A stretch of DNA of 57,991 bases, the filler included, from Candidatus Hydrogenedentota bacterium (lineage in GTDB: Bacteria > JBFMHD01): the NCBI GenBank assembly GCA_040752395.1. It is 5 parts of 5 records of this genome, joined end to end, with 100 filler letters (N's around TTAATTAATTAA, not from the genome) between each part and the next. Parts side by side here need not be neighbours in the genome. Positions count along the whole stretch, not along the records: positions 1 to 11,763 come from JBFMHD010000076.1; 4 more parts are not named here. The stretch is one strand, 5' to 3'. The notes under the pieces were generated by a model that was not told the DNA's origin, did not search any database, and was given only the letters and a program-made list of their open reading frames with translations. This document shows, in pieces, positions 1 to 52,932 of this stretch. The position numbers and the translations under genes were made by a program. How positions within the stretch are numbered: position 1 is the stretch's first letter; the number at the start of each line of letters is the position of its first letter.

Positions 1-37
1 TTTTTATTCTCAAACTCAATCTCTCATCGAATCGCAT
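1..37 (-). CDS. 5' end of a gene running off the window (MRFDERLSLRIK...), possibly orotidine-5'-phosphate decarboxylase
   Basis: ATG at 37 with GAGGAG 5 nt upstream; co-directional and downstream of pyrC-K-D; product guessed from context only. Confidence 0.35.
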   Translation of the reverse strand, partial: MRFDERLSLRIK

Positions 38-42
38 ATCAA

Positions 43-270
43 CTCCTCTGAAAAACGCTGTAACTCTAATAATTCGGGGTACAGGCTACGGGCTACGGAC
101 TACAGCCGGCTGGAGCCCCCTATGAAAAGTCTTGAGTCTTGAGTCTTGAGTCTTGAGTCCTGTTTTGACTCACGACTTGTGACTCACGACTCTTTTCATA
201 TCATTTTTAGTTTTTCATCCTTTGTGCCTTTGTGCCTTTCCCTCCTGACTCACGACTCTTTGACTTCATA
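43..270. repeat. Family A interspersed element, copy A1
   Basis: Starts CTCCTCTGAAAAACGCTGTAACTCTAATAAT, followed by GGCTAC-, TCTTGAG-, GACTCAC- and TTTGTGCC-type arrays shared with about 10 other loci. Confidence 0.9.
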
Positions 271-283
271 AACTGATTTTATG

Positions 284-1102
284 TCATCTCCTATGGTAAT
301 TCTTTATGTTTTTTAAGATTCTTTTTACTGCGTCAGGATATATAAAATTTATACTGCCGATCTGCACTGCTTTAGCACCTGCTCTTAAGTATTCAATAAC
401 ATCCTCTGCCTTGGTAACACCACCTGATGCGATAACAGGAAGCCTTGTTTTTAGAACCACATTATATACATTATATAAACCCAGAGGCTTTATACAGGGT
501 CCTGATAAACCACCTCGTATGATTTTTTCATTTATTGATACCATTGCTGGATAGGTATTGGTTATACTTACAGCATCTGCACCATAATCTTCGCATATAG
601 AAACATATTCAAGGCAAAGATATGGCGGTAATTTTACCGAGATAAAACTATCTGTATTTTCTCTTAATGTTTTGAGTATTTTTTTAATATAGTTTTTATT
701 AACGAATGGCAAGATATTCTTATGTTTTATGTTGGGACAGGATATATTTAATTCATAACCGCTGATCTTTTTACTATTTTTTAGATAATTTATCAATGTT
801 CTCATCTCTTTGCAATCCTCTGCATATAGACTTACAAGAAAAATCGTGGGGAATTCTGTTTTGGCTATTATTTCTAAAAATTTAACCACGCCGGGATTTT
901 CTAATCCTACCGAGTTCACTATACCTGATGCTGTCTCAATAATGCGTGGGGCCGGGTTTCCTTTTCTGGGTTTCAAAGTAATGGTTTTACTTACAAACAT
1001 ACCTGCAAGAGAATAGTATTCCTTGTATTCATCACCGAGTCCAAACGTGCCACTTGCAATAACTAACGGATTTTTCAATTTCAGTTTCCCGAGATTAATC
1101 AT
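284..1102 (-). CDS. pyrD: dihydroorotate dehydrogenase (family 1B) catalytic subunit
   Basis: NPLVIASGTFG, ELNISCPN, GGLSGPCIKP, VIASGGV motifs; next to pyrK and pyrC. Confidence 0.95.
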   Translation of the reverse strand: MINLGKLKLKNPLVIASGTFGLGDEYKEYYSLAGMFVSKTITLKPRKGNPAPRIIETASGIVNSVGLENPGVVKFLEIIAKTEFPTIFLVSLYAEDCKEMRTLINYLKNSKKISGYELNISCPNIKHKNILPFVNKNYIKKILKTLRENTDSFISVKLPPYLCLEYVSICEDYGADAVSITNTYPAMVSINEKIIRGGLSGPCIKPLGLYNVYNVVLKTRLPVIASGGVTKAEDVIEYLRAGAKAVQIGSINFIYPDAVKRILKNIKNYHRR

Positions 1103-1848
1103 AAAACAATCTCCCTGGCATTAAAAACAGGTCCATCTTTACAGACCCGGTAATAACCTTTTCCATCCCTCCTTTCAACCGGGCAGGCATAACATACGCC
1201 AAAACCACAACCCATCCTTTCTTCAAGCGATACCTCTATAAAAAAAATATATCTATGTAATTTTTTATAAACAGTCCTTATCATTTCAACAGGGCCACAG
1301 GTATAACAACGAGTGTATTGTTCTAGTTTAGAAAGATAATCTGTCACTAATCCGTGTGTATCTTCAAAAATTATCCTTGCTTCTATATTATTGAGAATAT
1401 TTTCTGGTAATTCTTTTTTTGATTTTATACCATATAAAAAAGTATACTTCACCTTCATCTCTTTTAATTTCTTTATTAGATAAAATACCGGTGCCAACCC
1501 TGTCCCACCACTCACAACAAGCACATTATCTGTTTTACTATCAAGATTAATATTAAAGCCCTTGCCAAGCGGACCCAAAATAGAAAGATAATCATTCTTT
1601 CTAAGATGAGTTAAATTTTCCGTACCTCTGCCTACAATTTTATAAAGAAGACTTGTACTGTCTTTCTCTATATCCATAATACTGAATGGCCTTCTTAGAT
1701 AAGGGTCGGTCTCGTTTTCTTTTCTACAAAGAACCTCCACAAACTGACCCGGGACCACGTTTTTAAAATCCTTTGTGAGAAGTTTAAGTAAATAATAATT
1801 TTGTGAAACTTTTTCATTATATAGAACTTTTATTACAAACTCTTTCAT
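1099..1848 (-). CDS. pyrK: dihydroorotate dehydrogenase electron transfer subunit
   Basis: LRRPFSI, GPLGKGF, GGTGLAP and C-terminal CGFGVCYAC...C 2Fe-2S motif. Confidence 0.95.
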   Translation of the reverse strand: MKEFVIKVLYNEKVSQNYYLLKLLTKDFKNVVPGQFVEVLCRKENETDPYLRRPFSIMDIEKDSTSLLYKIVGRGTENLTHLRKNDYLSILGPLGKGFNINLDSKTDNVLVVSGGTGLAPVFYLIKKLKEMKVKYTFLYGIKSKKELPENILNNIEARIIFEDTHGLVTDYLSKLEQYTRCYTCGPVEMIRTVYKKLHRYIFFIEVSLEERMGCGFGVCYACPVERRDGKGYYRVCKDGPVFNAREIVL

Positions 1849-3134
1849 AATCGTTCTCTATCAAGTAATATTTTGCCTTTATAAACAACTTTTTCCACAC
1901 AGCCTTCTAATTCTTTATTCAAAAAAGGTGTATTACAGCTTTTAGATTTTAAAAATTCTTTGTTAATCTTTATCTTTGTTTTTGGATTAAAGACAATAAA
2001 TTCAGCGCTGCTCCCCTTTTTAATTTCTATTTTATCAATCCCTAAAATTTTTCTCGGGTTAATTGAGAAGGTTTTCAGGATAACATTCCAGTTTATTTTT
2101 TTAGGTTTGATAAGATAATTATAAATAGAGACTAAAGCAATATCAAGCCCTATAATTCCAAAGGGTGCATTGATAAAATCCTGATTTTTTTCAAAAATAG
2201 TATGTGGTGCGTGGTCTGTAGCGATACAATCGATATAACCATTTTTAAGACCATCAAGTAATTTTCTATTATCTTCTACTCTTCGAAGCGGTGGATTCAT
2301 CTTAAAATTTGTATCATAATCCTCTATGTCTTTCTCTGAAAATATTAAATGATGTGGCGTAACTTCACAGGTTACGTTTACCCCCCTCTCTTTGTATCTT
2401 TTAATAATATCTAAACTACAAGCAGTAGAGATATGTTGTATATGAACCCTTGCTCTGGTCAGCTCTGCTAAACGTAAATCCCTTTCAATACATATTTCTT
2501 CGCTTGCTTGCGGTATGCCAGGAAGCCCAAGTTTTATTGCAGTCTCACCCTCGGTTATTACACCACCTTCTGATAATTCCTTAACCTCACAATGGCAGCT
2601 GACTATAATATTAAAATTTTTAGAGTATTCCATTGCTCTTCTTAACATTAATGGGTTTGAAACAGGATTACCATCATCTGTAATCATAACTATACCTTTA
2701 TCAGCCATATCACCTATCTCGGCGAAATTTTCGCCATTTCTATTTTGAGTTATACAACCTGCAATATATACCGGGATCCTTGACCTCTCTTTTGATAAAG
2801 ATTTAACAAAAGTGACTACAGAGCCTGTATCAATAGCCGGGTCAGTATTTGGCATACAGACAATGGCTGTGATACCGCTATTTATAGCAGCTTCTGTTCC
2901 TGTCTCTATTGTTTCTTCATCTTCTCTCCCTGGCTCTCTTAGATGTGTATGCATATCAAATAATCCAGGAAGAATAATCTTATCTTTACAATTATAGATA
3001 ATAGTTGATTTATCTGGTTCAAACTTATTCTCTACCCCTATTATTCTATCATCTTCTATGAGTATATCTTTTCTTTGCGGCCGGGGATTATCTTCGTAAA
3101 CTATTGACCCGTTTTTAAATAACAATTTTGCCAC
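1845..3134 (-). CDS. pyrC: dihydroorotase
   Basis: DMHTHLREPG, MPNT, KMNPPLR, ATDHAPH; GTG start with GAGGAGG RBS. Confidence 0.95.
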   Translation of the reverse strand: MAKLLFKNGSIVYEDNPRPQRKDILIEDDRIIGVENKFEPDKSTIIYNCKDKIILPGLFDMHTHLREPGREDEETIETGTEAAINSGITAIVCMPNTDPAIDTGSVVTFVKSLSKERSRIPVYIAGCITQNRNGENFAEIGDMADKGIVMITDDGNPVSNPLMLRRAMEYSKNFNIIVSCHCEVKELSEGGVITEGETAIKLGLPGIPQASEEICIERDLRLAELTRARVHIQHISTACSLDIIKRYKERGVNVTCEVTPHHLIFSEKDIEDYDTNFKMNPPLRRVEDNRKLLDGLKNGYIDCIATDHAPHTIFEKNQDFINAPFGIIGLDIALVSIYNYLIKPKKINWNVILKTFSINPRKILGIDKIEIKKGSSAEFIVFNPKTKIKINKEFLKSKSCNTPFLNKELEGCVEKVVYKGKILLDRERL

Positions 3135-3140
3135 AGAAAC

Positions 3141-3438
3141 CTCCTCTGAAAAACGCTGTAACTCTAATAATATTAAATAGAAGCAAGAGGCAAGATAACG
3201 GAAGAAGTGAGAGGTGTCAGGACGGGCTACAGGCTACAGGCTACGGACTACAGCCGGCTGGAGCCAAAAGCCCAGAGCCTGCTGAAAAGTCTTGAGTCTT
3301 GAGTCTTGAGTCTCGAGTCCTGTTTTGACTCACGACTTGCGACTTGTGACTCTTTTCATACTTTGTGCCTCTGTGCCTCTCTCGTTATCTTTCTTTCCGT
3401 TATCTTGCTTCTTGCTTCTTGCTTCTTTCGTTATCTTG
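3141..3438. repeat. Family A element, copy A2 (long form)
   Basis: Same terminus as A1; GAAGCAAGAGGCAAGATAACGGAA near the left end is inverted to TTCCGTTATCTTGCTTC near the right end. Confidence 0.9.
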
Positions 3439-3454
3439 ATAATAGCCGCTGTAT

Positions 3455-3521
3455 GCAGAGCTTTAAGTATGATTCTGCTATATTAACTGTATTTAGTTTA
3501 CCTACCGTGTCAATAACTTTT
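3455..3521. repeat. 67-bp direct repeat of 4367-4433 (3' end of gene 4361-6397)
   Basis: Manual alignment 64/67 identical. Confidence 0.95.
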
Positions 3522-3610
3522 GAACTCTTTTTTCCTTGCACTTCTTTCCTATTTTTTCTATTCTTTGCTTATAAATAGAAGCTTATGTCAAAACAAAATT
3601 TCGAGGTTTT

Positions 3611-3949
3611 ATGTCTATTCCTTGGGAAATAACTCCACAGAAGGTTAAAACTGTTGTTGATAGAATAATCGAAATCAGCAAGCCGCAACGGATTATTCTT
3701 TTTGGTTCTTATATCAATGGAAACACAAACCGAAACAGTGATCTTGATGTACTTGTGGTGATGAAAGAAAAACTTGAAAACCCTCGAAAAGAAAGTGTTA
3801 GAATTCGCCGTTTTCTGAAAGGTATATTAATGCCGATAGATATTTTGGTCATTCACGAAAAACTATTGAAAGAAATTGCCAATACCCCTGGTTTAATTTA
3901 CCGAGAAGCTATTAAAAATGGAAGGGTTGTGTATGAAGCCACCACCTGA
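3611..3949 (+). CDS. minimal nucleotidyltransferase (MNT) antitoxin
   Basis: ILFGS...SDLDVLVV motif, 112 aa, overlaps the HEPN gene. Confidence 0.9.
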   Translation: MSIPWEITPQKVKTVVDRIIEISKPQRIILFGSYINGNTNRNSDLDVLVVMKEKLENPRKESVRIRRFLKGILMPIDILVIHEKLLKEIANTPGLIYREAIKNGRVVYEATT

Positions 3950-4364
3950 GAAATATATCCCTGCTTCCCCTGAAGAATGGTTAACACATGCTAAAAGTGA
4001 TTTAAAATTCGCGAAACTCGGAATGAATCAGGATGTTTTGCGAGAACAAATATGTTTCCATGCTCAACAGGCTGTTGAAAAAGCAGTCAAATCGGTATTA
4101 GCCTTATTTAAAGTTGACTTTCCTTTTACTCATGACATAGAAGAACTTCTTGATATCTGTGAAATAGCAGGAATTTTAATTCCCTTAGAGTTATCAGATA
4201 TTGGCATGTTAACGCCATATGCTGTCGAAAGTCGTTACCCTGGCTATTGGGGTGAGATATTGGAAAATGATGTAACAGAAGCTATAATATTTGCTGAAAA
4301 AACAATAAAATGGGCAGAAGACCAGATAGAAAAAAAGGCAAGTGAGGAGCACTTCTGTAACTAA
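3933..4364 (+). CDS. HEPN-domain toxin
   Basis: W..A..DL..A, CFHAQQAVEKAVK, THDIEELL, YAVESRYPG; ATG 3933 preferred to 3918. Confidence 0.9.
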   Translation: MKPPPEKYIPASPEEWLTHAKSDLKFAKLGMNQDVLREQICFHAQQAVEKAVKSVLALFKVDFPFTHDIEELLDICEIAGILIPLELSDIGMLTPYAVESRYPGYWGEILENDVTEAIIFAEKTIKWAEDQIEKKASEEHFCN

Positions 4365-6397
4365 AAGCAGAGCTTTAAGTATGATTCTGCTATATTAACT
4401 GTATTTGGTTTACCTGCTGTGTCAATAACTTTTTGGAAATATGATTTAGCTTTCTCTATCTCCCCTTTTTTGAAATAAATTATACCAAGACTACATATCG
4501 CATCTATGTTTTTATGATTTAATTCAATTGCTTTGTTGTAAAAGTTTATAGCGGTTTCGGTCTCGCCTAATTTATCGAGTGAGAGTCCGGCATTTAACCA
4601 TTCAGCATCACTCCTGCTTGCGCCACTACGCAATAACTCTTTGTAAAACCATTTCAACGAACGAGTAAATTCATTCAGTCTGAATAATAAAGCACCAGCA
4701 TTTCTTGCAAGCCCGGTTATACTGGGATCATTTCCAAACCCTGACTCATAATAATTTAATGCTCTCTCATAATCTTTCTTAGATTCATAAAATAAGCCGC
4801 AGTTACCCCAGGCTTCAGCATAACCAGGATGTATCCTCAATGCTTTTACAAAACATATCACACCATCTGCATTACCTGATTTTAATAAGACATCACCCGC
4901 AGAATTTATGTAATCTTCAAAATAAGGTGCGCTCTTAATGGCTTTTATAAAATAATCTCTGGACCTTTTGTAATCATTATAAGCATCTCTGTAAATCATC
5001 CCCATTCTATAATACCCTATCCTTGGGTCTTTCTCTAATCTCTCATGTAAAGAGAGATGTTTAATGGCTTGTTCGGCATAACTTAAATTTTTTTGAGAGA
5101 TGAAAAGATCGTGAAATAAAGAACCGTATCTTAAATGTATGTCAGCTGTTAGTTGCGATAAACACCATAACATCACAGGAACTATTAAGATAATATTGCG
5201 GTTTTCCGTTATCTTGCTTCTTGCCTCTTGCTTCTTGCCTCTAAATTCTACCTGAAACTGGTTGATTACTCTTCGCGCTATTAACCCAAGATACATAAAA
5301 AACATAAAAGAGGTTCCAGGATTATGAAGGTTGTAGGTAAAAAAACTATTAGAGATCGCACCGAAAACTCCTGCTGCAAACGGTAATAGATCAGAGTGTG
5401 ACCTCAAAACCGTTAAACTAAAAATTATAACTGAAGTAAAAAATAAAATCGAGGTGACTAATCCTGCCTCAACTGCGATATATAAAAATTCGTTATGAGG
5501 GCTCTCTACTCGCGATTTCCCTGATATTATCTTCTCCTCATAAAGCCGGTATAAAGGATAAACTAAATTGAATTGACCATAAGCGATACCTGCTTTGGCC
5601 TCTTTAATCATCATAATCGAACTCTGCCAGGAATATAATCTAAAAAGACGGCTGCTTGATAACGGAAAAATTTTTTTATATAGATAAATCCCTGATAAAG
5701 TTATAAAAACTAAAATTAATATAAATGAATAAATTTTCAGTTTCTTGTTAAAAACTTTTATAAAATAATAACAAAAAATAATAAAGATAGAAGTTAAGGC
5801 ACCAATTAACGCTCCCTCAGACTGCGTTCTGTAGATTACATAAAATATAAAAATCGTGCTACTCAGCAAGAATAAAGTAATAAATTTGTCAGAATATGCT
5901 CTGATTGTAAGAAATATTCCTATTGGTAGAATAAAGACAAGATATTCACCAAAGAAGTTGGGGTTCCCAAAAGTAGCTATCATCCCGGAATCTTTCTCCC
6001 AATTACCAATAAAAAAATTGTAAAGATTTAAATATCCATAAATCGCCAAACCACTTCCCACTACAAATATTAGTAAAAGTATTTTAAGAAAATCACTCCC
6101 ATTCTCTCTAAATAAGATATAAACTGATATTAAAGTGAGTAAATGAACCAGCTCTTTATATAAATCTATTCTGTTTACTACATAAAATGAAGATATTAGA
6201 GAGATTATTATACATACAATCATTATCCTCTCAAATTTAATAAGATTTATATTATTGATTCTTATAAAACAAAGACCTGAAAAAGTAAGGATAACCAGAA
6301 AAAGCCATTTAACAATTAATGCACCTGTGGTTGTTGCAGTATCACAGCATAACGGTATTATAACTATTAAAAGTTTCGAAATAAACTCAGATATCAT
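4361..6397 (-). CDS. O-antigen ligase (Wzy_C)-family membrane protein with C-terminal TPRs
   Basis: Many TM segments, ATFGNPNFF, RLYSW, PHNEFL; TPR-like repeats at the C-terminus. Confidence 0.85.
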   Translation of the reverse strand: MISEFISKLLIVIIPLCCDTATTTGALIVKWLFLVILTFSGLCFIRINNINLIKFERIMIVCIIISLISSFYVVNRIDLYKELVHLLTLISVYILFRENGSDFLKILLLIFVVGSGLAIYGYLNLYNFFIGNWEKDSGMIATFGNPNFFGEYLVFILPIGIFLTIRAYSDKFITLFLLSSTIFIFYVIYRTQSEGALIGALTSIFIIFCYYFIKVFNKKLKIYSFILILVFITLSGIYLYKKIFPLSSSRLFRLYSWQSSIMMIKEAKAGIAYGQFNLVYPLYRLYEEKIISGKSRVESPHNEFLYIAVEAGLVTSILFFTSVIIFSLTVLRSHSDLLPFAAGVFGAISNSFFTYNLHNPGTSFMFFMYLGLIARRVINQFQVEFRGKKQEARSKITENRNIILIVPVMLWCLSQLTADIHLRYGSLFHDLFISQKNLSYAEQAIKHLSLHERLEKDPRIGYYRMGMIYRDAYNDYKRSRDYFIKAIKSAPYFEDYINSAGDVLLKSGNADGVICFVKALRIHPGYAEAWGNCGLFYESKKDYERALNYYESGFGNDPSITGLARNAGALLFRLNEFTRSLKWFYKELLRSGASRSDAEWLNAGLSLDKLGETETAINFYNKAIELNHKNIDAICSLGIIYFKKGEIEKAKSYFQKVIDTAGKPNTVNIAESYLKLCF
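5201..5269 (-). mobile_element. Family B element fragment inserted in frame in gene 4361-6397
   Basis: Reverse complement of 5201-5254 matches 20861-20914 at 50/54; encodes VINQFQVEFRGKKQEARSKITEN. Confidence 0.8.
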
Positions 6398-6665
6398 CCT
6401 GTTGCTTCGCTTGATTGTAAATTCTTTCTGCTAACCCGAACTCTCTACTGTTTTCAGGCAGAGCGCGAAGTTCGGTAATTAGGGTAGCACTAACATCAAG
6501 ATAATCTCTGTGTATATCATCTACCACAACTGCCACATCTATATCACTATCTGCGATTTCTATACCTTTAGCATATGAACCATAAATAATTATTTTTTTA
6601 ACAGGAATATAAGTTCGTACAATATCAGCATATTGTTTTACTGATTCAATAACTGAACTATCCAT
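6387..6665 (-). CDS. MNT nucleotidyltransferase, probably 3'-truncated or chimeric
   Basis: IIYGSYAKG...SDIDVAVV; sequence after SATL is atypical and encoded by a hairpin. Confidence 0.7.
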   Translation of the reverse strand: MDSSVIESVKQYADIVRTYIPVKKIIIYGSYAKGIEIADSDIDVAVVVDDIHRDYLDVSATLITELRALPENSREFGLAERIYNQAKQQDDI

Positions 6666-7036
6666 TTACAGAACACCTCATTTTGACTATATATTTCTTT
6701 CGATCTTTCTTTTGACAGACTTTTTAATATCTCTTCCTTAGAATCAGGATATCTTACCTCAATATTTAACGGCATTAATAAATCGAATAATTTTATCTGT
6801 TCATCTGTTATTTGTTTATAAAGATTGGATTTTTCAGCAAGCTTTATAAGATTATGAATATAAGGGGGTTTACTCTTATTTATGTACCAGTAATAAGCTT
6901 TAAAAAATTTTTCTATTGCCTGATGACAATAAAACCCTGCATCCAGATGCTTATCATTGTCTAGTAAAATTTTTGCAGTAGCACAGTTATCTATTGCTAA
7001 ATTTGTCCAGTAATCGATTTTCTGTTTTATATTCAT
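6638..7036 (-). CDS. HEPN-domain protein
   Basis: GFYCHQAIEKFFKA, PPYIHNLIKL, NIEVRYP. Confidence 0.9.
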   Translation of the reverse strand: MNIKQKIDYWTNLAIDNCATAKILLDNDKHLDAGFYCHQAIEKFFKAYYWYINKSKPPYIHNLIKLAEKSNLYKQITDEQIKLFDLLMPLNIEVRYPDSKEEILKSLSKERSKEIYSQNEVFCKWIVQLLNQ

Positions 7037-7130
7037 ATGTTTTTATTTAACCTGTTTCTATCTATTATTGCAACATTTTTTATTTACTATACTTCCTGTT
7101 TGTGCCGGTCGCCTTTGGCTTTGGCTGACA

Positions 7131-9062
7131 CTACATCGATTTTAGTTTCATTACTGCATATCTATACGCATCTGTGGTTGTATCTAACTCGATGGCAGCG
7201 TTATAACAATCTCTTGCTTTTTGGCTCTCTCTCTTTTTTAAATAAAGATCACCGAGCGAGACTAAATCATTCTGCGCCACTTTATTAATTTTTATCACTC
7301 TTTCATAATAAAATATCGCCTTGTCTGTCGCATCATTTAATTGATAAAGATACGCAAGATTATGAGCAGATACAGGGTTATCTTTATTGAGTCTGTAAGC
7401 CATTAAAAAATACGATTCTGATAGGCTATACTCTTTGGTATTTAAATGTTCAGCTCCTTCTGAAATATATGAGGAGATAAGACCTACCATCGCTTCAACA
7501 TTATTAAACGGATATGCTCGAAGTGAAATAAGATAATACTTAGCTGCACTCATATAATCATTTAAATAAAAAGAAGAGACAGCTAAATTGTTCCAGTAAG
7601 CAGGCTCGTATGGTATCTTTCTCAATGTCTCTCTTATAATCTCCTTACTTTTTAATAAGTCATTACTATCATTATTATTACTTAACCCTCTTCTTAAATA
7701 ACTCTCGCCGAGATTATAATGGCTTAAGAATTCACAGCGATTAAGTTTAGAACTTCTCTCAAGTAAAAAATTAGCAGTATTATAATCTCCTGCATCTTTA
7801 TAATACAATCCTGCTTTAAGATATGCACCGGCTAATAGCTCGCTAAAATAAAAGACTAAAATAAAGAAAAATGCCAAGCCACAGAGTCTCTTCAAATAAA
7901 ATTTTTCGCTACTCATTCTTTCTGATAATGGAGCAGAATTAATAATCCCTGAAAACGCAAAAAACAATACAGGCGGTGTTTCAAGATAAAATGGAAAAGA
8001 AAAGAAAGAGGAGATACTGATTGCGATTAAAGAAGAGGATAAAATAATATTTAATATCTCCTTTGATTTCAGAGCTACTATAATGGTTATTATTAAAAAT
8101 AATACAAAAAAAGTTATACCTATAAAGCCTGTCTCACAAAAAAATTGGAGAAAATCATTATGCGAGTGATGAACAAGATTTATGCCTGAAAAAGATTTTT
8201 CCTCCGGTAATCTATAATGTGGATATGTAACTTTAAAATTGTTTAACCCTACACCTGTTAAATTGAAATCCCTGATTATCTCAAAAGTAGATTGCCAGAT
8301 AGGTAACCTTACCTCGAATCCACCCCTGATAACATTCTTTATTGTCAAAATCTCGTTATAAAATGTTTTATATACTGGTAATAATGCAATGAATAACAAG
8401 AAAAACATCGTTAATAACATCCTCTTTGCAGAATGAAATAATAAAGCAATAACAATATAAGTTATACCCCCGGCCAAACCAAGATAAGCTCCCCTGCTTT
8501 TTGCAATTACAAGCGAGATAATTAAAACGATGCTTCCGATTGAATAAAAAAATGTTAAAATATAATTTTTTTTTATTAATGATTTAAAAAAATAATAGAT
8601 TGAGAGAGGAATAACTACTATAAGATAATCAGAAAAAAAATTGGGGTTACCAAAAGTAGAGGTGATCCCATGCTTCCAATCAAAAAATTCTATACCATAT
8701 GATTCAAGAATCCCATATATACCAAGAATGTACGCGGTAAATAGCAATCCTGGAAATATTTTGTCCTGAGATACCATACTAAATGATTGCCGGGTAAATA
8801 AAAATGTAAAATACCATAACAATACATTGATAAAAAAAGCAAATGAGATATGCGGATTCACTGCGAATAAAGAAGATATGAAAGCAGCTATTACAAAAAT
8901 TAGTAATGGTGTAGACTTATATCTGCTTCCCGGTGAAGCCAGATATAGAAACAATAATCCGATAACCCAGAAAAAATATTTTATAAAATAAGCCTCTCTG
9001 CTTATCGCTGTCATTGCAACAGGAACAAGTATAAATAAAAAAAGATAACCGATTAAAGGCAT
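7131..9062 (-). CDS. O-antigen ligase (Wzy_C)-family membrane protein with TPRs
   Basis: STFGNPNFF, SRGAYLG, RLPIW, HSHNDFLQ; TPR C-terminus. Confidence 0.88.
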   Translation of the reverse strand: MPLIGYLFLFILVPVAMTAISREAYFIKYFFWVIGLLFLYLASPGSRYKSTPLLIFVIAAFISSLFAVNPHISFAFFINVLLWYFTFLFTRQSFSMVSQDKIFPGLLFTAYILGIYGILESYGIEFFDWKHGITSTFGNPNFFSDYLIVVIPLSIYYFFKSLIKKNYILTFFYSIGSIVLIISLVIAKSRGAYLGLAGGITYIVIALLFHSAKRMLLTMFFLLFIALLPVYKTFYNEILTIKNVIRGGFEVRLPIWQSTFEIIRDFNLTGVGLNNFKVTYPHYRLPEEKSFSGINLVHHSHNDFLQFFCETGFIGITFFVLFLIITIIVALKSKEILNIILSSSLIAISISSFFSFPFYLETPPVLFFAFSGIINSAPLSERMSSEKFYLKRLCGLAFFFILVFYFSELLAGAYLKAGLYYKDAGDYNTANFLLERSSKLNRCEFLSHYNLGESYLRRGLSNNNDSNDLLKSKEIIRETLRKIPYEPAYWNNLAVSSFYLNDYMSAAKYYLISLRAYPFNNVEAMVGLISSYISEGAEHLNTKEYSLSESYFLMAYRLNKDNPVSAHNLAYLYQLNDATDKAIFYYERVIKINKVAQNDLVSLGDLYLKKRESQKARDCYNAAIELDTTTDAYRYAVMKLKSM

Positions 9063-9160
9063 AAACCTTCTATAAGCTCCACTAATTTATCTCCTATGGT
9101 TTCAATCCCGAACTCACTAATAAATTCTTTATCAATACTTATTTTTCTTGTTTCCTCTTT
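9061..9160. repeat. 100-bp direct repeat of 10051-10150 (3' end of GT4 gene)
   Basis: Manual alignment 96/100 identical. Confidence 0.95.
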
Positions 9161-9564
9161 AGTAATTTTATTTCGTATGCCCAAAATTCTTTTGGTAGTA
9201 TAATATCAATATTTTTATATTTTTTCAAACTTATCAATTCCTGATCGCCGGTTATAATGCAATCACAATTCCCGGCAATTGCTGTCCCTATAATTTTATA
9301 ATCATCTTTATCCTTTATTCCATTCACAATAATATCTTTTATTTCTCCAATGTTTGTTATTTTCTCGAGTACTACTGATATTATTTCTTTTGTTTCCTTT
9401 GCCGTATAATAAAATTTTTCGATTAATTTTTCTTCTAATTCTTTTATTATGTAATTTGATGTGACAATTCTATGATTTCGTATACAATGCTCAATAACTT
9501 CAAAACATGTTCCATGCGTAATAAGTGATGCTATCAAAACATTTGTGTCTAAAACAATTTTCAT
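9139..9564 (-). CDS. PIN-domain putative toxin
   Basis: KIVLDTNVLIAS, DKDDYKII, IITGDQEL. Confidence 0.92.
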   Translation of the reverse strand: MKIVLDTNVLIASLITHGTCFEVIEHCIRNHRIVTSNYIIKELEEKLIEKFYYTAKETKEIISVVLEKITNIGEIKDIIVNGIKDKDDYKIIGTAIAGNCDCIITGDQELISLKKYKNIDIILPKEFWAYEIKLLKRKQEK

Positions 9565-9779
9565 GAAACCCTGTTAAATACGTCATCTTCTGTAAATATT
9601 TTATTACTCTGCGCTTTGATTATCAATTTATTCCTCAGTTTATTTAATTTTCTAAAATAAAGAAAGTTTTCTAACGATTCCCTGATGATATTGCTTCGGC
9701 TTACCCCTTCTTCTCTGGTTATCTGATCAATTTCTCTCTTTATTTTATTTGGTAAACTAATAGTTAAAGTTTCTCTCAT
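9561..9779 (-). CDS. ribbon-helix-helix (CopG-like) antitoxin
   Basis: TLTISLP...SRSNIIRESL; ATGA overlap with the PIN gene. Confidence 0.88.
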   Translation of the reverse strand: MRETLTISLPNKIKREIDQITREEGVSRSNIIRESLENFLYFRKLNKLRNKLIIKAQSNKIFTEDDVFNRVS

Positions 9780-9790
9780 TTTTAAACTCC

Positions 9791-9827
9791 TGTATTATAT
9801 TTTAATACAATAATAATGCTCTGTCAA
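9791..9827 (-). promoter_or_regulatory. sigma70-type promoter with overlapping palindromic operator for RHH-PIN
   Basis: Minus strand TTGACA-N17-TAAAAT; TGTATTA-N5-TAATACA palindrome (9791-9809) covers the -10. Confidence 0.65.
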
Positions 9828-9904
9828 TAGTTTTAATAACAGGTCTTTTTAAATGTTATGTCAATAATTATGTTGAAAATTAATAGTTGGTATATCTCCC
9901 TCAA

Positions 9905-10005
9905 ATGAAAAGTCTTGAGTCCTGTTTTGACTCACGACTCTTTTCATATCATCTCTTAATAATCTTTCAATCTTTCAATCTTTTAATCTTTGTGCCTTTG
10001 TGCCT
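9905..10005. repeat. Family A internal hairpin module plus 8-mer arrays (A3)
   Basis: ATGAAAAGTCTTGAGTCCTGTTTTGACTCACGACTCTTTTCAT, then TCTTTCAA and TTTGTGCC repeats. Confidence 0.85.
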
Positions 10006-10018
10006 CTTTTCCTCCCCT

Positions 10019-11164
10019 TTAAAGTGTCTCACGTTTCAGGGAAGCAGTATATAAACCTTCTATGAGCTCCACTAATTTATCCCCCATGGTTTCAATCCCG
10101 AACTCACTAATAAACTCTTTATCAATACTTATTTTTCTTGTTTCCTCTTTGAATCGTTTGTTTTCTTTTAATACTTGTTTAATTCTATCAACAAAGCCAG
10201 GTACATCATAAGGTTCTACTAAAAAACCATTTCTATTCTCGAAAACTACTTCTTTATTGCCATCTATATTACTTGCAACTATCGGTACGCCGGAATCAAT
10301 AGCTTCAAGTAAAACACGGGGTAGACCCTCCCATAGCGATGTTAAAACAAAACAATCAAATAAAGATATGATATCCCTTGCATCGTATCTCCAGCCAAGA
10401 AAAATAACCCTCTCTTCTATTTTATAATCTGAAACTTTTTTTAGAAATCTATCTTTTAACTCACCATCGCCTACAAAAATAAAAAAAGCATTATCTATTC
10501 GTTTAGCTATCTCAACAAAGGTTAATGGATTTTTTTGGTGTTTCAAACAAGAGACCGTTCCAACGATAAATTGGTTATCTTTTTTGTGCGACAACATCGC
10601 TACTATATCATCTGGTGGTACTGATTGATAACCTAATTTTATACCGCTTCTTATAAGAATATATTTATCTCTATCTCCCATACCCCAGTTTACCCCCTTA
10701 TTTATATCTTCTCTGCTAACAGCAATTAATCTAAGGGTAAAAAACGAGGCTATTCTTTCAAGCAATATTAAAAATATACGTAAAAGTTTGTTCTGGAAAG
10801 GGTTTATGCCAAACCCATGTATGGTATGGATAGCTTTAAAACCACTAATTGCTGCTGCGAAACGGCCAAGTATCCCAGCTTTGGATGAATGGGTATGAAC
10901 TAAATCTGGCTTTATTTTTCTAAATATTTTTATTAGTTCCACAAATGTGATAAAATCTTTTATCGGATTAATCTCTCTAACAAGAGAATCAATTAATATT
11001 ATCTCAAGTGCTTTAATCTCTTTTGCTTTAAAAAGAAGCATACCCTCACTTGCTATTAAAATAACTCTGTGGCCACTTTCAAGAAGTCTTTTACAGGTAT
11101 AGAGTGTATTATCCTGTGCACCACCGAGCTCAAGTTTAGTTATAAGTTGTATTATCGTTGCCAT
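10019..11164 (-). CDS. glycosyltransferase family 4
   Basis: GGAQ, VHTHSSKAG, SLWEGLPRVLLEA. Confidence 0.93.
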   Translation of the reverse strand: MATIIQLITKLELGGAQDNTLYTCKRLLESGHRVILIASEGMLLFKAKEIKALEIILIDSLVREINPIKDFITFVELIKIFRKIKPDLVHTHSSKAGILGRFAAAISGFKAIHTIHGFGINPFQNKLLRIFLILLERIASFFTLRLIAVSREDINKGVNWGMGDRDKYILIRSGIKLGYQSVPPDDIVAMLSHKKDNQFIVGTVSCLKHQKNPLTFVEIAKRIDNAFFIFVGDGELKDRFLKKVSDYKIEERVIFLGWRYDARDIISLFDCFVLTSLWEGLPRVLLEAIDSGVPIVASNIDGNKEVVFENRNGFLVEPYDVPGFVDRIKQVLKENKRFKEETRKISIDKEFISEFGIETMGDKLVELIEGLYTASLKRETL

Positions 11165-11179
11165 ACATTCCTTTCCTTA

Positions 11180-11285
11180 AATGCTGATGTTTTAAGTCAC
11201 CCCAAATATCTTCTTCTTCGACCTTGACTTCTCTCCATAAATCTGATTCTGTTAATGCTGTTAACGGCTTATTCATGCTGTTCAT
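11180..11285 (-). pseudogene. possible N-terminal remnant of an IS256-type transposase
   Basis: LTESDLWREVKVEEEDIWGDLK resembles IS256 transposase N-termini as recalled; not verified. Confidence 0.3.
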
Positions 11286-11395
11286 TTGAGACCCATATAT
11301 AAAATTTTTACCCCCTTTGTCAAAAAAAATTAAACAAATTCTTGACAAATATGTGAAAAATAAGATATATTAAAATATATAAAGATGATTTTAAG

Positions 11396-11763
11396 GTGGT
11401 CAAAATTATGAAAGATGAAATAATAACTGCTTTTAAAACAATGTTTTTGCCAGAACTCGAAAAATTACAAATAGAGATATCCGCTGTTAAGGGTGAGATA
11501 ATTGGTATAAAGGCCGGGATAACAGGTATACATAAAACTATGGGTGAGATGTCTCTAAGAATTTCTGATATTAATACTCATATAATGCGCTTAGATAATC
11601 GAATCGATGAAACAAATAATCGAATCGATGAAATAAATAATCGAATCGATGAAACAAATAATCGAATCGATGAAACAAATCAACGGCTTAATACTTTATA
11701 TGAAGTAATTGTCCGACGTGAGGAACATGAAAAGATCGCAATGGAAGTTATAAAGCTCAGGCA
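11396..11763 (+). CDS. coiled-coil protein with NRIDETN repeats (cut by contig end)
   Basis: Heptad pattern; 21-bp tandem repeat x4 at 11597-11680. Confidence 0.7.
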
Positions 11764-46702: not shown

Positions 46703-46835
46703 AGGCTTTTGGGCTTTTGTCTCCAGCCGGCTGTAGTCCGTAGCCTGTAGCCTGTCCTGATACCTCTCACTTCTTCCGTTATCTTGCTTCTTGCTTCTAC
46801 TTGAAATTATTAGAGTTGCGAAGTTTTTCAGAGGA
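46703..46835. repeat. Family A element, copy A10 (reverse)
   Basis: Ends ...AGTTTTTCAGAGGA, 10 nt before the obgE ATG. Confidence 0.9.
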
Positions 46836-46845
46836 TGAATGACTG

Positions 46846-48096
46846 ATGTTTCTTGATGAAGTTATTATAGAAGTCGAGGCAGGCAAGGGCGGCGATGGTG
46901 TAATAAGTTTTAGAAGAGAAAAATATGTTCCTAAAGGTGGACCTGATGGTGGTTGCGGCGGCAGAGGTGGAGATGTTATACTAAAAGCAAGCATAAAAGA
47001 AAATACTCTTACAAGGTATCTCTATAAAAAAAAGTTTAAGGCAGAGGACGGAAAAAAAGGTGGTAGCACTAACAGAACAGGCCGAAATGGAACAAATTTA
47101 ATATTGTATGTTCCCTGTGGAACTGTTGTTTATTTAGAAGATGGTGAAATATTAGCTGATATAACAGAAGAGAATGAAGGGGTTATAATTGCTAAAGGGG
47201 GCCGGGGCGGAGCTGGGAACTCAAAGTTTGCAACTTCTAAAAGACAGACACCTCGTATTTGCGAGAAAGGCGAAAGAGGCGAAAAGAAAAAGATTAGACT
47301 TGTATTAAAACTCATCGCAGACATCGGTATAATAGGGTTGCCAAATGCTGGTAAATCAACGCTACTATCAAGGATATCCAATGCAAGACCTAAAATAGCT
47401 GACTATCCCTTCACAACACTTGAACCTGTTCTTGGTATAGTGATATTATCAGATTATCGGAGTATGGTTTTTGCTGAGTTACCAGGGCTTATTGAAGGCT
47501 CAAGTAAAGGTACTGGTCTTGGTGATAAATTTTTAAAGCACGCTGAAAGAACTAAAATGCTCTTGCATCTTATCGACAGTACTAATGATGATATACTTAA
47601 AAATTATTATACTATAAGAAAAGAGTTAAAATACTATAGTGAGGCTCTTTACCAAAAAAAAGAGATAGTTGTTATTAATAAATGCGACGCAATAACTGAT
47701 TCAAGAAAAAGCAAAATAGAAAATATCTTTAATAAAAAAAAGATTGAGATTAAATTTATATCTGCAGTTACAGGAGATGGCGTAAATTCTGTTTTGGAAA
47801 GTATTTATAAAAAGGTTAAGGATATAAAATTAAAAAAGTCTAAAATAAAAAAGACCTATCAGTTCATAGAACCTTTTTATATAGAACAAAATGAAGGTAA
47901 ATTTGCTTTAAAAGGAGATGAGTTTGAAAAACTCGTTGAAAGATACGATTTAAGTAATCCTGACTCATTAAGATATTTCTATCAGCTTATGAAAAAAAAG
48001 GGATGGGAAGAAAAAATAAAAGAAGCTGGAATATCAAATGGTGATGAGGTAATTATTAAGGATAATATTTTTACTTACCACCAGCTAATCCCGTAG
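46846..48096 (+). CDS. obgE: GTPase Obg
   Basis: FRREKYVPKGGPDGG, GLPNAGKST, DYPFTT, NKCD; C-terminal OCT domain. Confidence 0.97.
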   Translation: MFLDEVIIEVEAGKGGDGVISFRREKYVPKGGPDGGCGGRGGDVILKASIKENTLTRYLYKKKFKAEDGKKGGSTNRTGRNGTNLILYVPCGTVVYLEDGEILADITEENEGVIIAKGGRGGAGNSKFATSKRQTPRICEKGERGEKKKIRLVLKLIADIGIIGLPNAGKSTLLSRISNARPKIADYPFTTLEPVLGIVILSDYRSMVFAELPGLIEGSSKGTGLGDKFLKHAERTKMLLHLIDSTNDDILKNYYTIRKELKYYSEALYQKKEIVVINKCDAITDSRKSKIENIFNKKKIEIKFISAVTGDGVNSVLESIYKKVKDIKLKKSKIKKTYQFIEPFYIEQNEGKFALKGDEFEKLVERYDLSNPDSLRYFYQLMKKKGWEEKIKEAGISNGDEVIIKDNIFTYHQLIP

Positions 48097-48136
48097 ACAT
48101 TTTTTTCTTGACTATCTTTCTTTTTTTTATTATATA

Positions 48137-48243
48137 GAGTCTGTTGCACGAATGTCAAAAATCAACTTTTTTATTTTGTAACTTATTCATTTTCAAATGT
48201 AAAATTTTCTAAGAAACTAAAAACTGACTTGTGCAACAGGCTC
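48137..48243. mobile_element. 107-bp MITE E
   Basis: TIR GAGTCTGTTGCAC/GTGCAACAGGCTC (12/13), ATA on both flanks. Confidence 0.7.
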
Positions 48244-48306
48244 ATAGTACAAACTATGAAGAATGGATTTAAAGTAATGTTTATAAACTAACATACAAAT
48301 TTTTCT

Positions 48307-48591
48307 ATGCAAGAAATAAAAATTATCTGTCCGTGTTGTAAAACCGAGTTGTATATTGATAAAGAAACAGAAGCGATACTAAAATACGAACAACCAAAGA
48401 AGCCGGGTCCCTCGCTTAAAGAAATGCTGGAATATGAAAAAAAGAAGGTTGATAAACGTCAAGAAATCTTTTCCAAAGAAATGGAAAAACAAAAGAGAAA
48501 AAAGGATATACTTGATAAAAAGTTTAAAAAAGCTTTTTCTGAATTTAAAGACGACGGAAAAAGACCCCAGACGCCGTTTGATTGGGAGTAA
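48307..48591 (+). CDS. hypothetical protein (CPCC zinc-knuckle-like N-terminus, coiled coil)
   Basis: ICPCCKTELYID...PFDWE. Confidence 0.7.
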   Translation: MQEIKIICPCCKTELYIDKETEAILKYEQPKKPGPSLKEMLEYEKKKVDKRQEIFSKEMEKQKRKKDILDKKFKKAFSEFKDDGKRPQTPFDWE

Positions 48592-48597
48592 AAACCA

Positions 48598-48898
48598 GTG
48601 GATTTAAAAATAGAGAATGAAAAAATAATAATAAAAGTTGATGATGCGTTTGACGGTTTGACCGGCAATAATCTTTTCTCTTTAATCGAGAAAACATTAA
48701 AGACTGATAAAAATGTTAAAACGGTTATTTTAGATATGTTAACTTGTAATTATATAAACAGTTCAGGCATCTCTAAACTCATAGAGGTATTTAATCTTTT
48801 AAAAAAAATCGGGTTTAGAATTAAAATTTACCAGTTTGCAACCAGGTGTATTGAAGATATTTAAATTAACATTTATAGATAAACTATTGGGAATTTGA
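48598..48898 (+). pseudogene. STAS-domain anti-sigma-factor antagonist, frameshifted at an A8 tract
   Basis: YINSSGI motif; deleting one A at 48801-48808 gives the tail SGLELKFTSLQPGVLKIFKLTFIDKLLGI ending at 48898. Confidence 0.7.
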
Positions 48899-48902
48899 AA
48901 TT

Positions 48903-50210
48903 ATGAAAAAAAATCTGATTATCACTTTAATTCTATTTATCCCACTAATCTGCATTCTAAGCTGTACTACAACTAACCCTGTCACAGGTGAAAAGCAAGT
49001 TGTTTTACTCTCTGAAGAAGAAGAAAAAAGGCTGGGTGAGGAGCTATACCCAAAATATACTCAACAATTTAATGGCTTATTTCAAGATGATAGACTGCAG
49101 TCTTATGTCACAGAGGTGGGTAGAAAAGTGGCTTCATATTCTCATAGACCCAACCTTAATTATGAATTCAATGTTGTAAATTCTTCAGAAGCTAATGCTT
49201 ATGCGTTACCTGGCGGTAAAATCAGTATAACAAGAGGATTAATATCAAGCCTGGAGAATGAAGCCCAACTTGCTTCTGTTTTCGCACATGAACTAGGTCA
49301 TATCTCTGCCTTACATACTGCCAGAGCATATACACGTAGTGTAATGGCTGAACTTATATTAACAGGCGTTGGAATGTATCTTGAAAAAAAAGATATTAAA
49401 TATAAAAATTACTATATGCTCGGCGGCTATCTCGTAACCGGGTTAGTTCTACTTAAGTATAGCCGGGATGATGAGCGGGAAGCTGATAAACTCGGCATCG
49501 AATACCTTGCTAAAGCAGACTATGACCCGTATCAGTTTGTGAGTGTTATGCAGCTTCTTAAATCGCTTGAAAAACGAAAACCACATAAATTTGAAGTGCT
49601 ATTTCGCAGCCATCCTTTAACTGATGAAAGAATACAAACAGCTCTAACATTATACCAGACTCAGTATAGCCAATATACAGGTGTTAAAAATAATGAAGAG
49701 TTCAAAACAGCGATAGCTAAAATAAAAATTACTGAACCCGCCTATGCTCTATTTGATAAAGGCGTTGAGAGTTTACAAAACAAAAGCATAACAGATGCAC
49801 TGGCCTATTTAAAGGATGCTTCTGGTAAAGCACCTGACCACGCAATAATACGGGCATATTATGGCAGGGCATTATATGAAAGTGGTAGAGATGAGATAGC
49901 ATACAGAGAACTCGAATCAGCATACCTCCTATACCCTGACCAGTTTCACATAAGATTATATAAAGGTATCGCTGATTTCGAGACCGCACGCTTTCTCGAG
50001 GCCATTAAGGATTTAAAAAGAGCTGATGAATTAATACCCGATCAAGCACCTGTTCAGTTTTTTCTTGCTAAGACCTATGAATACATTAATAGAAGAGAAG
50101 AATCAGCTGCATATTATTTAAAATTTTTAAAAATGGTTGATAGTGGTGACTGGGCAGAAGAGGCTAAACAAAAACTCATCTCATGGGGTTATCTACGAAA
50201 AGAAACTTAA
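48903..50210 (+). CDS. M48 metallopeptidase lipoprotein with TPRs (BepA-like)
   Basis: Lipobox ILSC, NAYALPGG, HELGH, YSRDDEREAD, SHP. Confidence 0.92.
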   Translation: MKKNLIITLILFIPLICILSCTTTNPVTGEKQVVLLSEEEEKRLGEELYPKYTQQFNGLFQDDRLQSYVTEVGRKVASYSHRPNLNYEFNVVNSSEANAYALPGGKISITRGLISSLENEAQLASVFAHELGHISALHTARAYTRSVMAELILTGVGMYLEKKDIKYKNYYMLGGYLVTGLVLLKYSRDDEREADKLGIEYLAKADYDPYQFVSVMQLLKSLEKRKPHKFEVLFRSHPLTDERIQTALTLYQTQYSQYTGVKNNEEFKTAIAKIKITEPAYALFDKGVESLQNKSITDALAYLKDASGKAPDHAIIRAYYGRALYESGRDEIAYRELESAYLLYPDQFHIRLYKGIADFETARFLEAIKDLKRADELIPDQAPVQFFLAKTYEYINRREESAAYYLKFLKMVDSGDWAEEAKQKLISWGYLRKET

Positions 50211-50228
50211 TAAAACCGCACAACGAAC

Positions 50229-50522
50229 TTTTTCGAAGGAGTCAACATGAGCGCGTTTGCGCTCTACACTATTGGGTTATTGCGTTTTTGCGCTCTACAC
50301 AAAGCATGAAAAACTAAAGATGATATGAAAAGAGTTGTGAGTCGCAAGTCGTGAGTCAAAACAGGACTCGAGACTCAAGACTTTTCAGCAGGCTCCGGGC
50401 TTTTGTCTCCAGCCGGCTGTAGTCCGTAGCCTGTAGCCCGTCCTGATACCTCTCACTTCTTCCGTTATCTTGCTTCTTGCTTCTACTTGATATTATTATA
50501 GTTACAATGTTTTTCAGAGGAG
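50229..50522. repeat. Family A element, copy A11 (reverse)
   Basis: TTTTTCGAAGGAG...TTTTTCAGAGGAG, all modules present. Confidence 0.9.
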
Positions 50523-50531
50523 GTCTATCTT

Positions 50532-50825
50532 ATGGATACAAAATTACGCTCAATGGTTAAATCTATTGTATGGAGAGTAATCGGTATAATTATCTTAGCT
50601 GTTATAGCTTATGCAACTACAAGCAGTATAAAAGAAATGACCATCATAACTCTTTTATTTCATTCTATCCGTGTTATTTTATATTATATACATGAGAGGG
50701 TCTGGGAACATATAAACTGGGGTCGACTAAAACATCCGCTTGCTGAAATCCCGATTAAAGGTAAACTCTCGCCTGCTGATATGGATATTATCAGGGAAAA
50801 ATTAAAGGAACTTGGCTACCTGTAG
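50532..50825 (+). CDS. DUF2061-like membrane protein
   Basis: RS..KSI.WR, LYYIHERVW..I.WG. Confidence 0.8.
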   Translation: MDTKLRSMVKSIVWRVIGIIILAVIAYATTSSIKEMTIITLLFHSIRVILYYIHERVWEHINWGRLKHPLAEIPIKGKLSPADMDIIREKLKELGYL

Positions 50826-50832
50826 CTAATTA

Positions 50833-51825: not shown

Positions 51826-51850
51826 CCTCATCTATAACTAATGGATTACC

Positions 51851-52023
51851 GTAATGCCTCAGTTATTGGTGCAGTAGAACTTATACTTTAGAGGCAAGAA
51901 GCAAGAAGCAAGGTAATTGAAAACTGTTGTAGGACCGGAAAAAACTTTGTGCCTTTGTGCCTTTGTGCCTCAAAACGTAGATGGTCTAACATTAACAAAC
52001 TCCACCGAAAACTGAGGGAATAC
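51851..52023 (+). mobile_element. Family B element
   Basis: GTAATGCCTCAG...CTGAGGGAATAC ends; GAAGCAA and TTTGTGCC arrays inside. Confidence 0.75.
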
Positions 52024-52026
52024 CTT

Positions 52027-52065
52027 AATTTACAATTTACAATTTACAATTTACAATTTACAATT
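52027..52065. repeat. AATTTAC heptamer array (5.5 units)
   Basis: Direct reading. Confidence 0.9.
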
Positions 52066-52074
52066 ATATATTAT

Positions 52075-52148
52075 GGGTTGTTAGCTCAGATAGGTAGAGC
52101 AGCGGACTCTTAATCCGCGGGCCACAGGTTCAATTCCTGTACAACCCA
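52075..52148 (+). tRNA. tRNA-Lys(CTT)
   Basis: Acceptor GGGTTGT/ACAACCC, anticodon arm GCGGA-CTCTTAA-TCCGC, GGTTCAATTCC T arm; CCA not encoded. Confidence 0.95.
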
Positions 52149-52326
52149 GAGTGTCGAATTGAAAATTTCACGCCGTTAGATACTATTGGTATCTAATTAT
52201 GATTAGATGTAATTTTGACTTATCTAACGCCGCGAAGATTGGAATTTGTAAATTACCCGCGACTTTTCAACTGGAGCCTGAAGCCCGTAGCCCAAAGGCT
52301 GAATTTACAATGGAGCAAAACGACTG

Positions 52327-52929: not shown

Positions 52930-52932
52930 AAT

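Follow-up and report, generated by a model that had tools for sequence, protein, structure and literature searches.

There is, to our knowledge, no accepted mechanism for the movement of chromosomal toxin–antitoxin (TA) modules, because most of them lie far from mobile elements. The closest described precedent concerns restriction–modification (RM) systems, whose insertion with long target duplication was reportedly described by Nobusato et al. in 2000 (Gene 259:99) and whose resulting scar has been an unexplained curiosity of these systems since that year. Here we examine small cassettes, chiefly of TA type, that lie between long direct repeats in Candidatus Hydrogenedentota bacterium (GCA_040752395.1), a metagenome-derived bin of 349 contigs (2.84 Mb, 34.8% GC, 94% complete). 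Three of them stand in the window, by which we mean the whole analysed stretch of 57,991 nucleotides (nt), built of five contigs joined by N runs (positions 1-11763 are contig C324 and 46703-57991 contig C329; C-numbers denote contigs of this genome and L-numbers individual loci extracted for comparison). We read the cassettes as self-contained addiction modules—a leader and two small overlapping genes—that entered tight gene junctions by insertion with long target duplication, and put the probability of this reading at roughly 0.55.

In the parts of Furuta, Abe and Kobayashi (2010; PMC2853133) drawn on here, "insertion with long target duplication" of RM systems is characterized by repeats of more than 30 bp that are variable in length, unique in sequence, unaccompanied by a mobility gene and often span the start or stop codon of a neighbour; the authors suggest the involvement of DNA double-strand breakage, which is common to restriction systems. 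The corresponding parts of Mruk and Kobayashi (2013; PMC3874152) state long target duplication for RM systems only, and those of Takahashi et al. (2011; PMC3031569) report experiments with one such system, PaeR7I, in which cells with an RM unit transferred to the chromosome are favoured through post-segregational killing, and note that TA systems could behave likewise. A full-text literature search, with most subscription papers outside its coverage, returned no TA modules with long target duplications.

Set beside the features given in the cited parts of PMC2853133, the window cassettes have repeats of more than 30 bp that are not multi-copy or mobile sequence, inserts of less than 20 kb and no linked integrase or transposase. 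They further share with the RM cases the uniqueness and variable length of the repeats, the spanning of start or stop codons and the addiction-module cargo. Homologues of R and M genes, likewise named there, are absent from the window cassettes and occur together only in a cassette on contig C315, with a methylase and an MjaI-type endonuclease; three methylase/restriction cassettes of this genome fit the RM pattern directly. The differences are these: the cargo here consists mainly of type II TA pairs, with toxin families that are RNases or nucleotidyltransferases, whereas that of the RM cases cuts DNA; and the RM cases were defined, in the parts cited, by an empty site in a related genome, whereas the empty sites here are deduced only. 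An earlier note on this DNA, made from the sequence alone, had placed the arrangement outside the known kinds. With long, variable, recombinase-free target duplications published for RM systems (PMC2853133, same parts), that placement falls; the kind is known, and it is its extension to many TA modules in one genome that appears new.

Two-copy repeats and their cargo

Each of the three TA-like pairs of the window lies between imperfect direct repeats, of 67 nt at site 1 (3455-3521 and 4367-4433; 64 identical, 96%), 100 nt at site 2 (9061-9160 and 10051-10150; 96 identical) and 58 versus 59 nt at site 3 (55123-55180 and 55858-55916; one indel, 91.5% identical). By a repeat search of the window and self-BLAST of the whole assembly, each of these repeats has exactly two copies in the assembly; their similarity breaks off sharply at both borders, and no inverted repeats pairing the cassette ends were found at the three sites. 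The last cassette stop falls 2 nt before the right repeat at site 1, 22 nt inside the repeat at site 2 and 1 nt inside it at site 3, and the leaders measure 89, 271 and 185 nt. The earlier note's description of three such pairs, with the last stop within 2 bp of or inside the repeat and leaders of about 90-270 nt, thus agrees with the measurements.

The left 1.3 kb of flank was aligned locally to the right 1.3 kb, with multi-copy DNA masked and a threshold score of 30. The window sites score 58, 77 and 38, and only 12 of 1500 random places in the genome reach 30, so a chance origin of the window repeats is excluded. Over the genome, 15 of 50 evaluable toxin loci reach the threshold (Fisher P 6e-17 against the random places); with two hand-added loci removed and two tandem paralogues on C341 not counted, the figure is 11 of 48 (P 8e-12). 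The scores of the toxin loci are bimodal, 15 loci lying at 38-167 and the remainder at 23 or below, with a control median of 12.

A survey of same-contig direct repeats (length 35-300 nt, identity 85% or more, spacing 200-4000 nt) yields 136 pairs, 26 of which have no third copy and define 25 loci. Named TA families (Pfam) occupy 13 of these loci, the cargo being HEPN or HepT with MNT nine times, ParE twice, and HicA, YafQ/Phd and PIN/RHH once each. Six more are TA-like (two DUF4160/DUF2442 pairs, three small two-gene pairs without a known toxin and one DUF6036 nucleotidyltransferase set), and three are DNA-methylase cassettes, one of them with the MjaI-type endonuclease of C315. The last three hold a sulfatase with a methyltransferase, a LacI regulator and, on a 1.5-kb contig, unclear cargo. 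This one genome thus has at least 19 TA-type and three methylase-type scarred cassettes, and TA and RM cargo is strongly over-represented in the genome-wide self-comparison—not the equal frequency around non-TA genes that the earlier note had named as fatal to its reading.

The same survey bears on the notion that the repeats are ordinary local duplications independent of cargo, with TA genes drawn in through their residence in variable regions. The three loci without addiction-type cargo speak for it, as do two repeat pairs around housekeeping genes, which are copies of a modular intergenic repeat; yet 22 of the 25 two-copy loci hold addiction-type cargo, and of the 12 matches among the 1500 random places four lie in bracketed cassettes already listed and the other eight in tandem paralogues. 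We accord this notion only a slim chance.

A toxin census by six-frame family searches, excluding the gene fragments on C56 and C84 and a 358-amino-acid (aa) PIN protein on C94, gave 50 loci (HEPN 27, HepT 8, PIN 5, ParE 7, DUF4160 3). In a tally of 52 loci, with C7 and C16 added by hand, 13 are bracketed and four have low- or multi-copy repeats; the target-duplication scar marks about a quarter of the genome's TA loci.

Window inserts measure 677-890 nt and those of the genome as a whole 0.55-2.9 kb; every cassette is unique at the DNA level, insert GC equals flank GC, and the insert ends have no common motif. Among 22 repeats compared, no k-mer is common beyond shuffled or random-genomic controls, which upholds the sequence-nonspecific process supposed in the earlier note. 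The cassettes stand in either orientation relative to the host gene, next to the 3' or 5' ends of unrelated genes, so the earlier statement that the repeats always cover a gene's 3' end does not extend to the genome. At site 3, C295, C296 and C305 both repeat borders lie inside genes. Repeat lengths run from 42 to 206 nt, with one of about 240 nt against about 530 nt in the partner copy, and identity grades evenly from 100% down to 87%. Beside the MNT + HEPN cassette on C58 (C58:3659-5459, L006) lies an orphan copy of a GNAT acetyltransferase gene that aligns in one block of 42 nt and another of 194 nt; the intervening stretch of about 290 nt is missing, so the original duplication was about 530 nt long and a deletion followed.

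Both copies of the repeats are internal to contigs with unique flanks, and this, together with their imperfection, bears on the idea that the repeat–cassette–repeat order was stitched together by the assembler, from variants of the strain or from a free circle with sequence in common with the chromosome. The fragmentation of the metagenome bin into 349 contigs and the exact terminal overlaps of 121-127 nt on other contigs give it some footing. Set against these are the imperfection of 22 of the 26 pairs (87-99% identical), the variation in repeat length, the differences of the orphan copies by substitutions and indels as in old DNA, the contig-internal position of both copies, and the same layout in another genome (L069, below); such an artefact is hardly credible to us. 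As a separate observation, contigs C198, C232 and C131 carry exact repeats of 121, 127 and 64 nt at both ends; these differ from the imperfect, contig-internal repeats of the cassettes and are probably assembler overlaps or small circles.

Anatomy of the three window sites

The cassettes of sites 1 and 2 have the layout of type II TA pairs, namely two small adjacent or overlapping genes of known families, and are classed as such by prediction (MNT + HEPN and RHH + PIN, where RHH stands for ribbon-helix-helix). Those of site 3 are better called TA-like: the layout is similar, and its families are domains of unknown function (DUF) rather than established toxins. The neighbours of the three cassettes are pyrimidine and histidine biosynthesis genes and cell-envelope genes, all housekeeping or envelope by Pfam.

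The features of site 1 are:
3455-3521, orphan repeat copy: duplicates the final 22 codons of the Wzy/TPR gene and stays open in frame as far as a stop at 3431-3433
3522-3610, plus strand, leader, 89 nt
3611-3949, plus strand, MNT-type nucleotidyltransferase (antitoxin type), 112 aa; NTP_transf_2 E 9e-11, Polbeta E 1e-10
3918-4364, plus strand, HEPN protein (toxin type), 148 aa; HEPN E 2e-23; its stop codon overlaps the one that the convergent host gene has newly acquired
4367-4433, repeat copy within the working host gene: last 22 codons of the Wzy_C + TPR gene
4361-6397, minus strand, host gene 1, O-antigen-ligase-like (Wzy_C) + TPR protein, 678 aa (Pfam)

A promoter scan matched no consensus promoter in the leader of site 1. 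Host gene 1 presently ends in KLCF before its stop, whereas the orphan copy continues as KLCIQRLLSR before its own, which implies that the host gene has lost seven residues. On the same 11.7-kb contig C324 stand three TA pairs, two scarred and one unscarred; the latter, a third HEPN + MNT pair (6387-7036, minus strand), lies between two paralogous Wzy_C + TPR genes without a flanking repeat, with a flank score of 12 that equals the background.

The features of site 2 are:
7131-9062, minus strand, host gene 3, second Wzy_C + TPR protein (Pfam); in the empty site as deduced, the stop of the glycosyltransferase gene overlaps the start of this gene
9061-9160, orphan repeat copy: retains the former end of the glycosyltransferase (stop 9053-9055) along with the region where the following gene starts (ATG 9062-9060)
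9139-9564, minus strand, PIN-domain toxin, 141 aa; PIN_3 E 1e-14
9561-9779, minus strand, RHH antitoxin, 72 aa; RHH_1 E 6e-9
9780-10050, minus strand, leader, 271 nt, including a glycosyltransferase tail, a copy of the modular intergenic repeat and a sigma-70-like site
10051-10150, repeat copy inside the working glycosyltransferase gene (repeat search)
10019-11164, minus strand, host gene 2, family-4/1 glycosyltransferase, 381 aa (Pfam)

Within this leader, a new 10-residue glycosyltransferase tail with its stop occupies 10019-10050 and the modular intergenic repeat about 9906-10018, and the promoter scan places the sigma-70-like site at 9827-9799, before the RHH gene, with an 11/12 match. The glycosyltransferase presently ends ...IEGLYTASLKRETL before its stop, within the insert, and the orphan copy reads ...IEGLCL before its stop. 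The last seven codons of the PIN gene lie in the orphan copy in a frame that differs from that of the glycosyltransferase, so the 3' end of the toxin gene itself is cut by the cassette border. The empty site, as deduced, is a normal operon junction, with the glycosyltransferase stop (9053-9055) overlapping the next gene's ATG (9062-9060).

The features of site 3 are:
55123-55180, left repeat copy: working last 43 nt of the hisF-like gene (54410-55165) and orphan last 13 nt of the convergent gene
55366-55611, plus strand, DUF4160 protein, 81 aa; E 4e-17
55592-55858, plus strand, DUF2442 protein, 88 aa; E 3e-10; its stop abuts the right repeat
55858-55916, right repeat copy: working 3' end of the gene at 55904-57067 (minus strand) and orphan frame-shifted hisF-like end

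The promoter scan matched no consensus in the site 3 leader either. The empty site deduced here leaves 3 nt between the end of the hisF-like gene and that of the gene convergent with it. The repeat of this site looked like a tRNA 3' end, an identification rejected as ARAGORN finds no tRNA there. Since each duplication straddles a gene junction, both neighbours keep one whole copy; the earlier claim that the host gene is preserved holds to that extent, and fails for the exact gene ends, which are altered at sites 1 and 2.

The modular intergenic repeat is of low complexity and consists of short, heptamer-like units in tandem; a single copy draws as many as about 340 BLAST matches. It makes up 4.7% of the assembly at a depth of at least 10, and many contigs terminate in it. 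Its copies in the window lie at 1-295, 3119-3452, 5194-5270, about 9906-10018, 46703-46866 and 50208-50546. Five inserts of the genome carry it, in three of the five within about 40 nt of the flanking repeat. Multi-copy repeat pairs at C2 (tRNA methyltransferase) and C292 (T2SS F gene), considered as target duplications, were set aside as copies of this repeat.

Founding, retention and rival origins

Under insertion with long target duplication, founding would be the work of host replication and repair enzymes, and not of an element-encoded enzyme, joining foreign DNA to the chromosome and, in doing so, copying 40-250 nt of the target to either side of it; the route might be a template switch whose point of re-entry lies upstream of its exit, or the filling in of widely staggered nicks. 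The duplicated stretch would straddle one gene's end and the next gene's end or start, each neighbour keeping a whole copy. As a duplication must span a gene boundary if both neighbours are to stay intact, insertion at gene ends is more likely a survivorship effect than the outcome of a mechanism targeting gene ends, as the earlier note had it. Retention would be a second and separate step: the direct repeats would permit deletion of the insert by homologous recombination and ordinary cargo would be lost, whereas deletants of TA or RM cargo would be killed or arrested, such that these cassettes accumulate. Given such deletability, cargo should persist only where losing it is lethal. An excised circle or fragment could also re-enter the same site, through the same repeats, in cells without the cassette.

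That the deduced empty sites 2 and 3 are normal gene junctions argues for insertion. The HEPN, HepT, PIN, HicA and YafQ toxins are RNases by family name, which argues against DNA breaks made by the cargo as the driver of insertion.

Several points weigh on the other side. No empty site was found, so that insertion rather than another rearrangement is deduced: no close relative of this genome turned up, the 40 genomes compared being related at domain level only; the glycosyltransferase query gave best identities of 46% and 39% among metagenome and genome contigs and 46% among 5.8 billion proteins, and a contig scan with the site 3 neighbour gene matched no relative. Both junctions of each cassette rest on the assembly, and the toxicity and addiction of the pairs are predicted, two of the three window toxin types being RNases by family name only. 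Three of the 25 bracketed loci, as noted, are without addiction cargo. Only 11 of the 50 census toxin loci are bracketed by two-copy repeats, and in the 52-locus tally 25 are without repeats, while 10 more show none but lie less than 1.2 kb from a contig end, too close for a verdict. Further, repeats are either at least 42 nt long or nothing above chance, with a 15-40 nt class and decayed intermediates both absent; this bimodality is unpredicted by a simple staggered break and hints at homologous pairing or at selection at tight junctions. A last such point comes from the coding differences between repeat copies.

In all, 75 coding differences were counted; synonymous changes account for 32 of them, where 19.9 would be expected (P 0.001), and third-position changes for 40, where the expectation is 23.5. 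Decay of the orphan copy alone is rejected by this test (P 0.001). The pattern comes close to that of one free and one constrained copy, for which we estimate about 39% synonymous differences at an assumed dN/dS of 0.1; the synonymous excess fits equally the arrival of a diverged homologous allele under weak constraint. The latter is what homologous (Campbell-type) integration would bring, in which a related strain supplies DNA, circular or looped, that bears the cassette together with a piece of the host gene and recombines with the chromosome through the latter; the repeats are then the donor and recipient alleles. Identity between the repeats is 87-100%, and none is shorter than 42 nt, roughly what homologous pairing requires, the 15-40 nt class being absent; the insert GC is host-like, five inserts hold the modular intergenic repeat, and the site 2 insert supplies a complete alternative gene tail with its stop. 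Even so, a circle of cassette plus repeat enters only its source site, and each of the 25 sites still needs a founding duplication. Moreover, at site 3, C295, C296 and C305 both borders lie within genes, so neither is a natural end of homology; the observed 43% of synonymous differences is below the value we estimate for two constrained alleles; and the orphan copies carry frameshifts. Homologous integration as the origin is therefore an unlikely account, albeit one to be reckoned with. The founding by circles carrying captured target DNA that the earlier note envisaged meets the same objection: such a circle re-enters only its own site and cannot found a new one, but it could spread an existing allele.

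As regards enzymes, Pfam searches of all cargo and neighbours found no recombinase or transposase in or beside the cassettes, and with the inverted-repeat checks also negative, the earlier note was right that no integrase, transposase or terminal inverted repeats attend them. The search of the whole assembly for recombinases, HUH enzymes and reverse transcriptases (RTs) that it had suggested yields two tyrosine recombinases of Xer-like type, one resolvase fragment and one integrase interrupted by an in-frame stop, and no match to RVT_1 (RT) or Y1_Tnp (HUH). These results bear on the proposition that the repeats are attachment (att) sites of a site-specific recombinase acting in trans, and the cassettes integrase-less cis-mobilisable elements or decayed islands. 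Such elements resemble the present loci in repeats that copy a gene's 3' end around a small integrase-less insert, and duplication of the target gene's 3' end is common among integrative elements (also discussed in the cited parts of PMC2853133); a broken integrase does lie 1.9 kb from a methylase cassette on C304. They differ in having a common core, one recombinase and one target, whereas here the sites all differ and no matching intact integrase was found: no core is common to the 22 repeats, the target genes are unrelated and used in both orientations, 5' ends included, the inserts of 0.55-2.9 kb are each unique in sequence, and the 94%-complete assembly offers just the two Xer-like recombinases and the broken integrase. 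Lacking a common crossover core and a cognate recombinase, the cassettes were rejected as att-site elements, and we regard this origin as very improbable. The broken integrase itself is a tyrosine-integrase match with an in-frame TGA (C304:1196-1747, minus strand), 1.9 kb outside repeats of 121/124 nt, and the locus there, a cassette of a methylase and a 409-aa protein, may be a decayed integrase-borne island.

Two further classes were set aside. Insertion sequences and DNA transposons are alike in flanking the insert with a direct target duplication, but theirs measure about 2-14 bp and come with a transposase and terminal inverted repeats, whereas here the duplications are of 42-206 nt, of no short fixed length, and neither feature is present. 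Promoter-bearing TA cassettes of about 0.6-1 kb, of the Vibrio superintegron type, are thought to stabilise their surroundings against deletion. The cassettes of chromosomal integrons are likewise compact promoter-bearing TA pairs, but share one attC repeat family beside intI; here each repeat pair is a unique copy of local host genes, and no attC-type family is common to the cassettes.

Wider reach and occurrence in other genomes

Most toxins here belong to RNase families by name, ParE excepted, so the factor common to the scarred cassettes appears to be addiction and not DNA cutting. More speculatively, and with our doubts outweighing our confidence, long target duplication might be a general footprint of any addiction module. 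TA pairs would then be recombinase-free cassettes that enter tight junctions via host errors, are fixed as non-integrating or deleting cells die, and later become reversible alleles mobilised by homology, accounting for about a quarter or more of the TA loci in this lineage. With addiction as the apparent common factor, the vague notion of selfish modules kept because their loss kills turns into countable, datable events, and two-copy direct repeats 0.5-3 kb apart offer a simple screen for such insertions in any genome.

On contig C315 (C315:7473-12467, L019), two methylase cassettes flank a single ParB-HTH-like gene (9655-10149) and duplicate different parts of it, 53 nt on the left and 205 nt on the right, the MjaI-type endonuclease being in the right-hand cassette.

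The scar is not confined to this genome, yet it is unusually frequent here. Among 30 HEPN loci sampled chiefly from other genomes (including L057, this genome's own, and L052), one is clean: L069, in an unrelated genome, where copies of 174 nt and 111 nt from the 3' end of an aldehyde dehydrogenase gene (94% and 93% identical) bracket an MNT + HEPN pair. A second HEPN locus with flank repeats, L076, is probably a paralogue effect, and L052, a HEPN locus from a single-protein query, has no flanking repeats. Two of 29 ParE loci of other genomes (L106, L116) are candidates for flanking repeats. The ParE genes at L088, L090 and L099, also in other genomes, stand in arrays of quite another appearance, with one 55-100 nt unit every 0.7-1.4 kb, which look like chromosomal integron-type cassette arrays.

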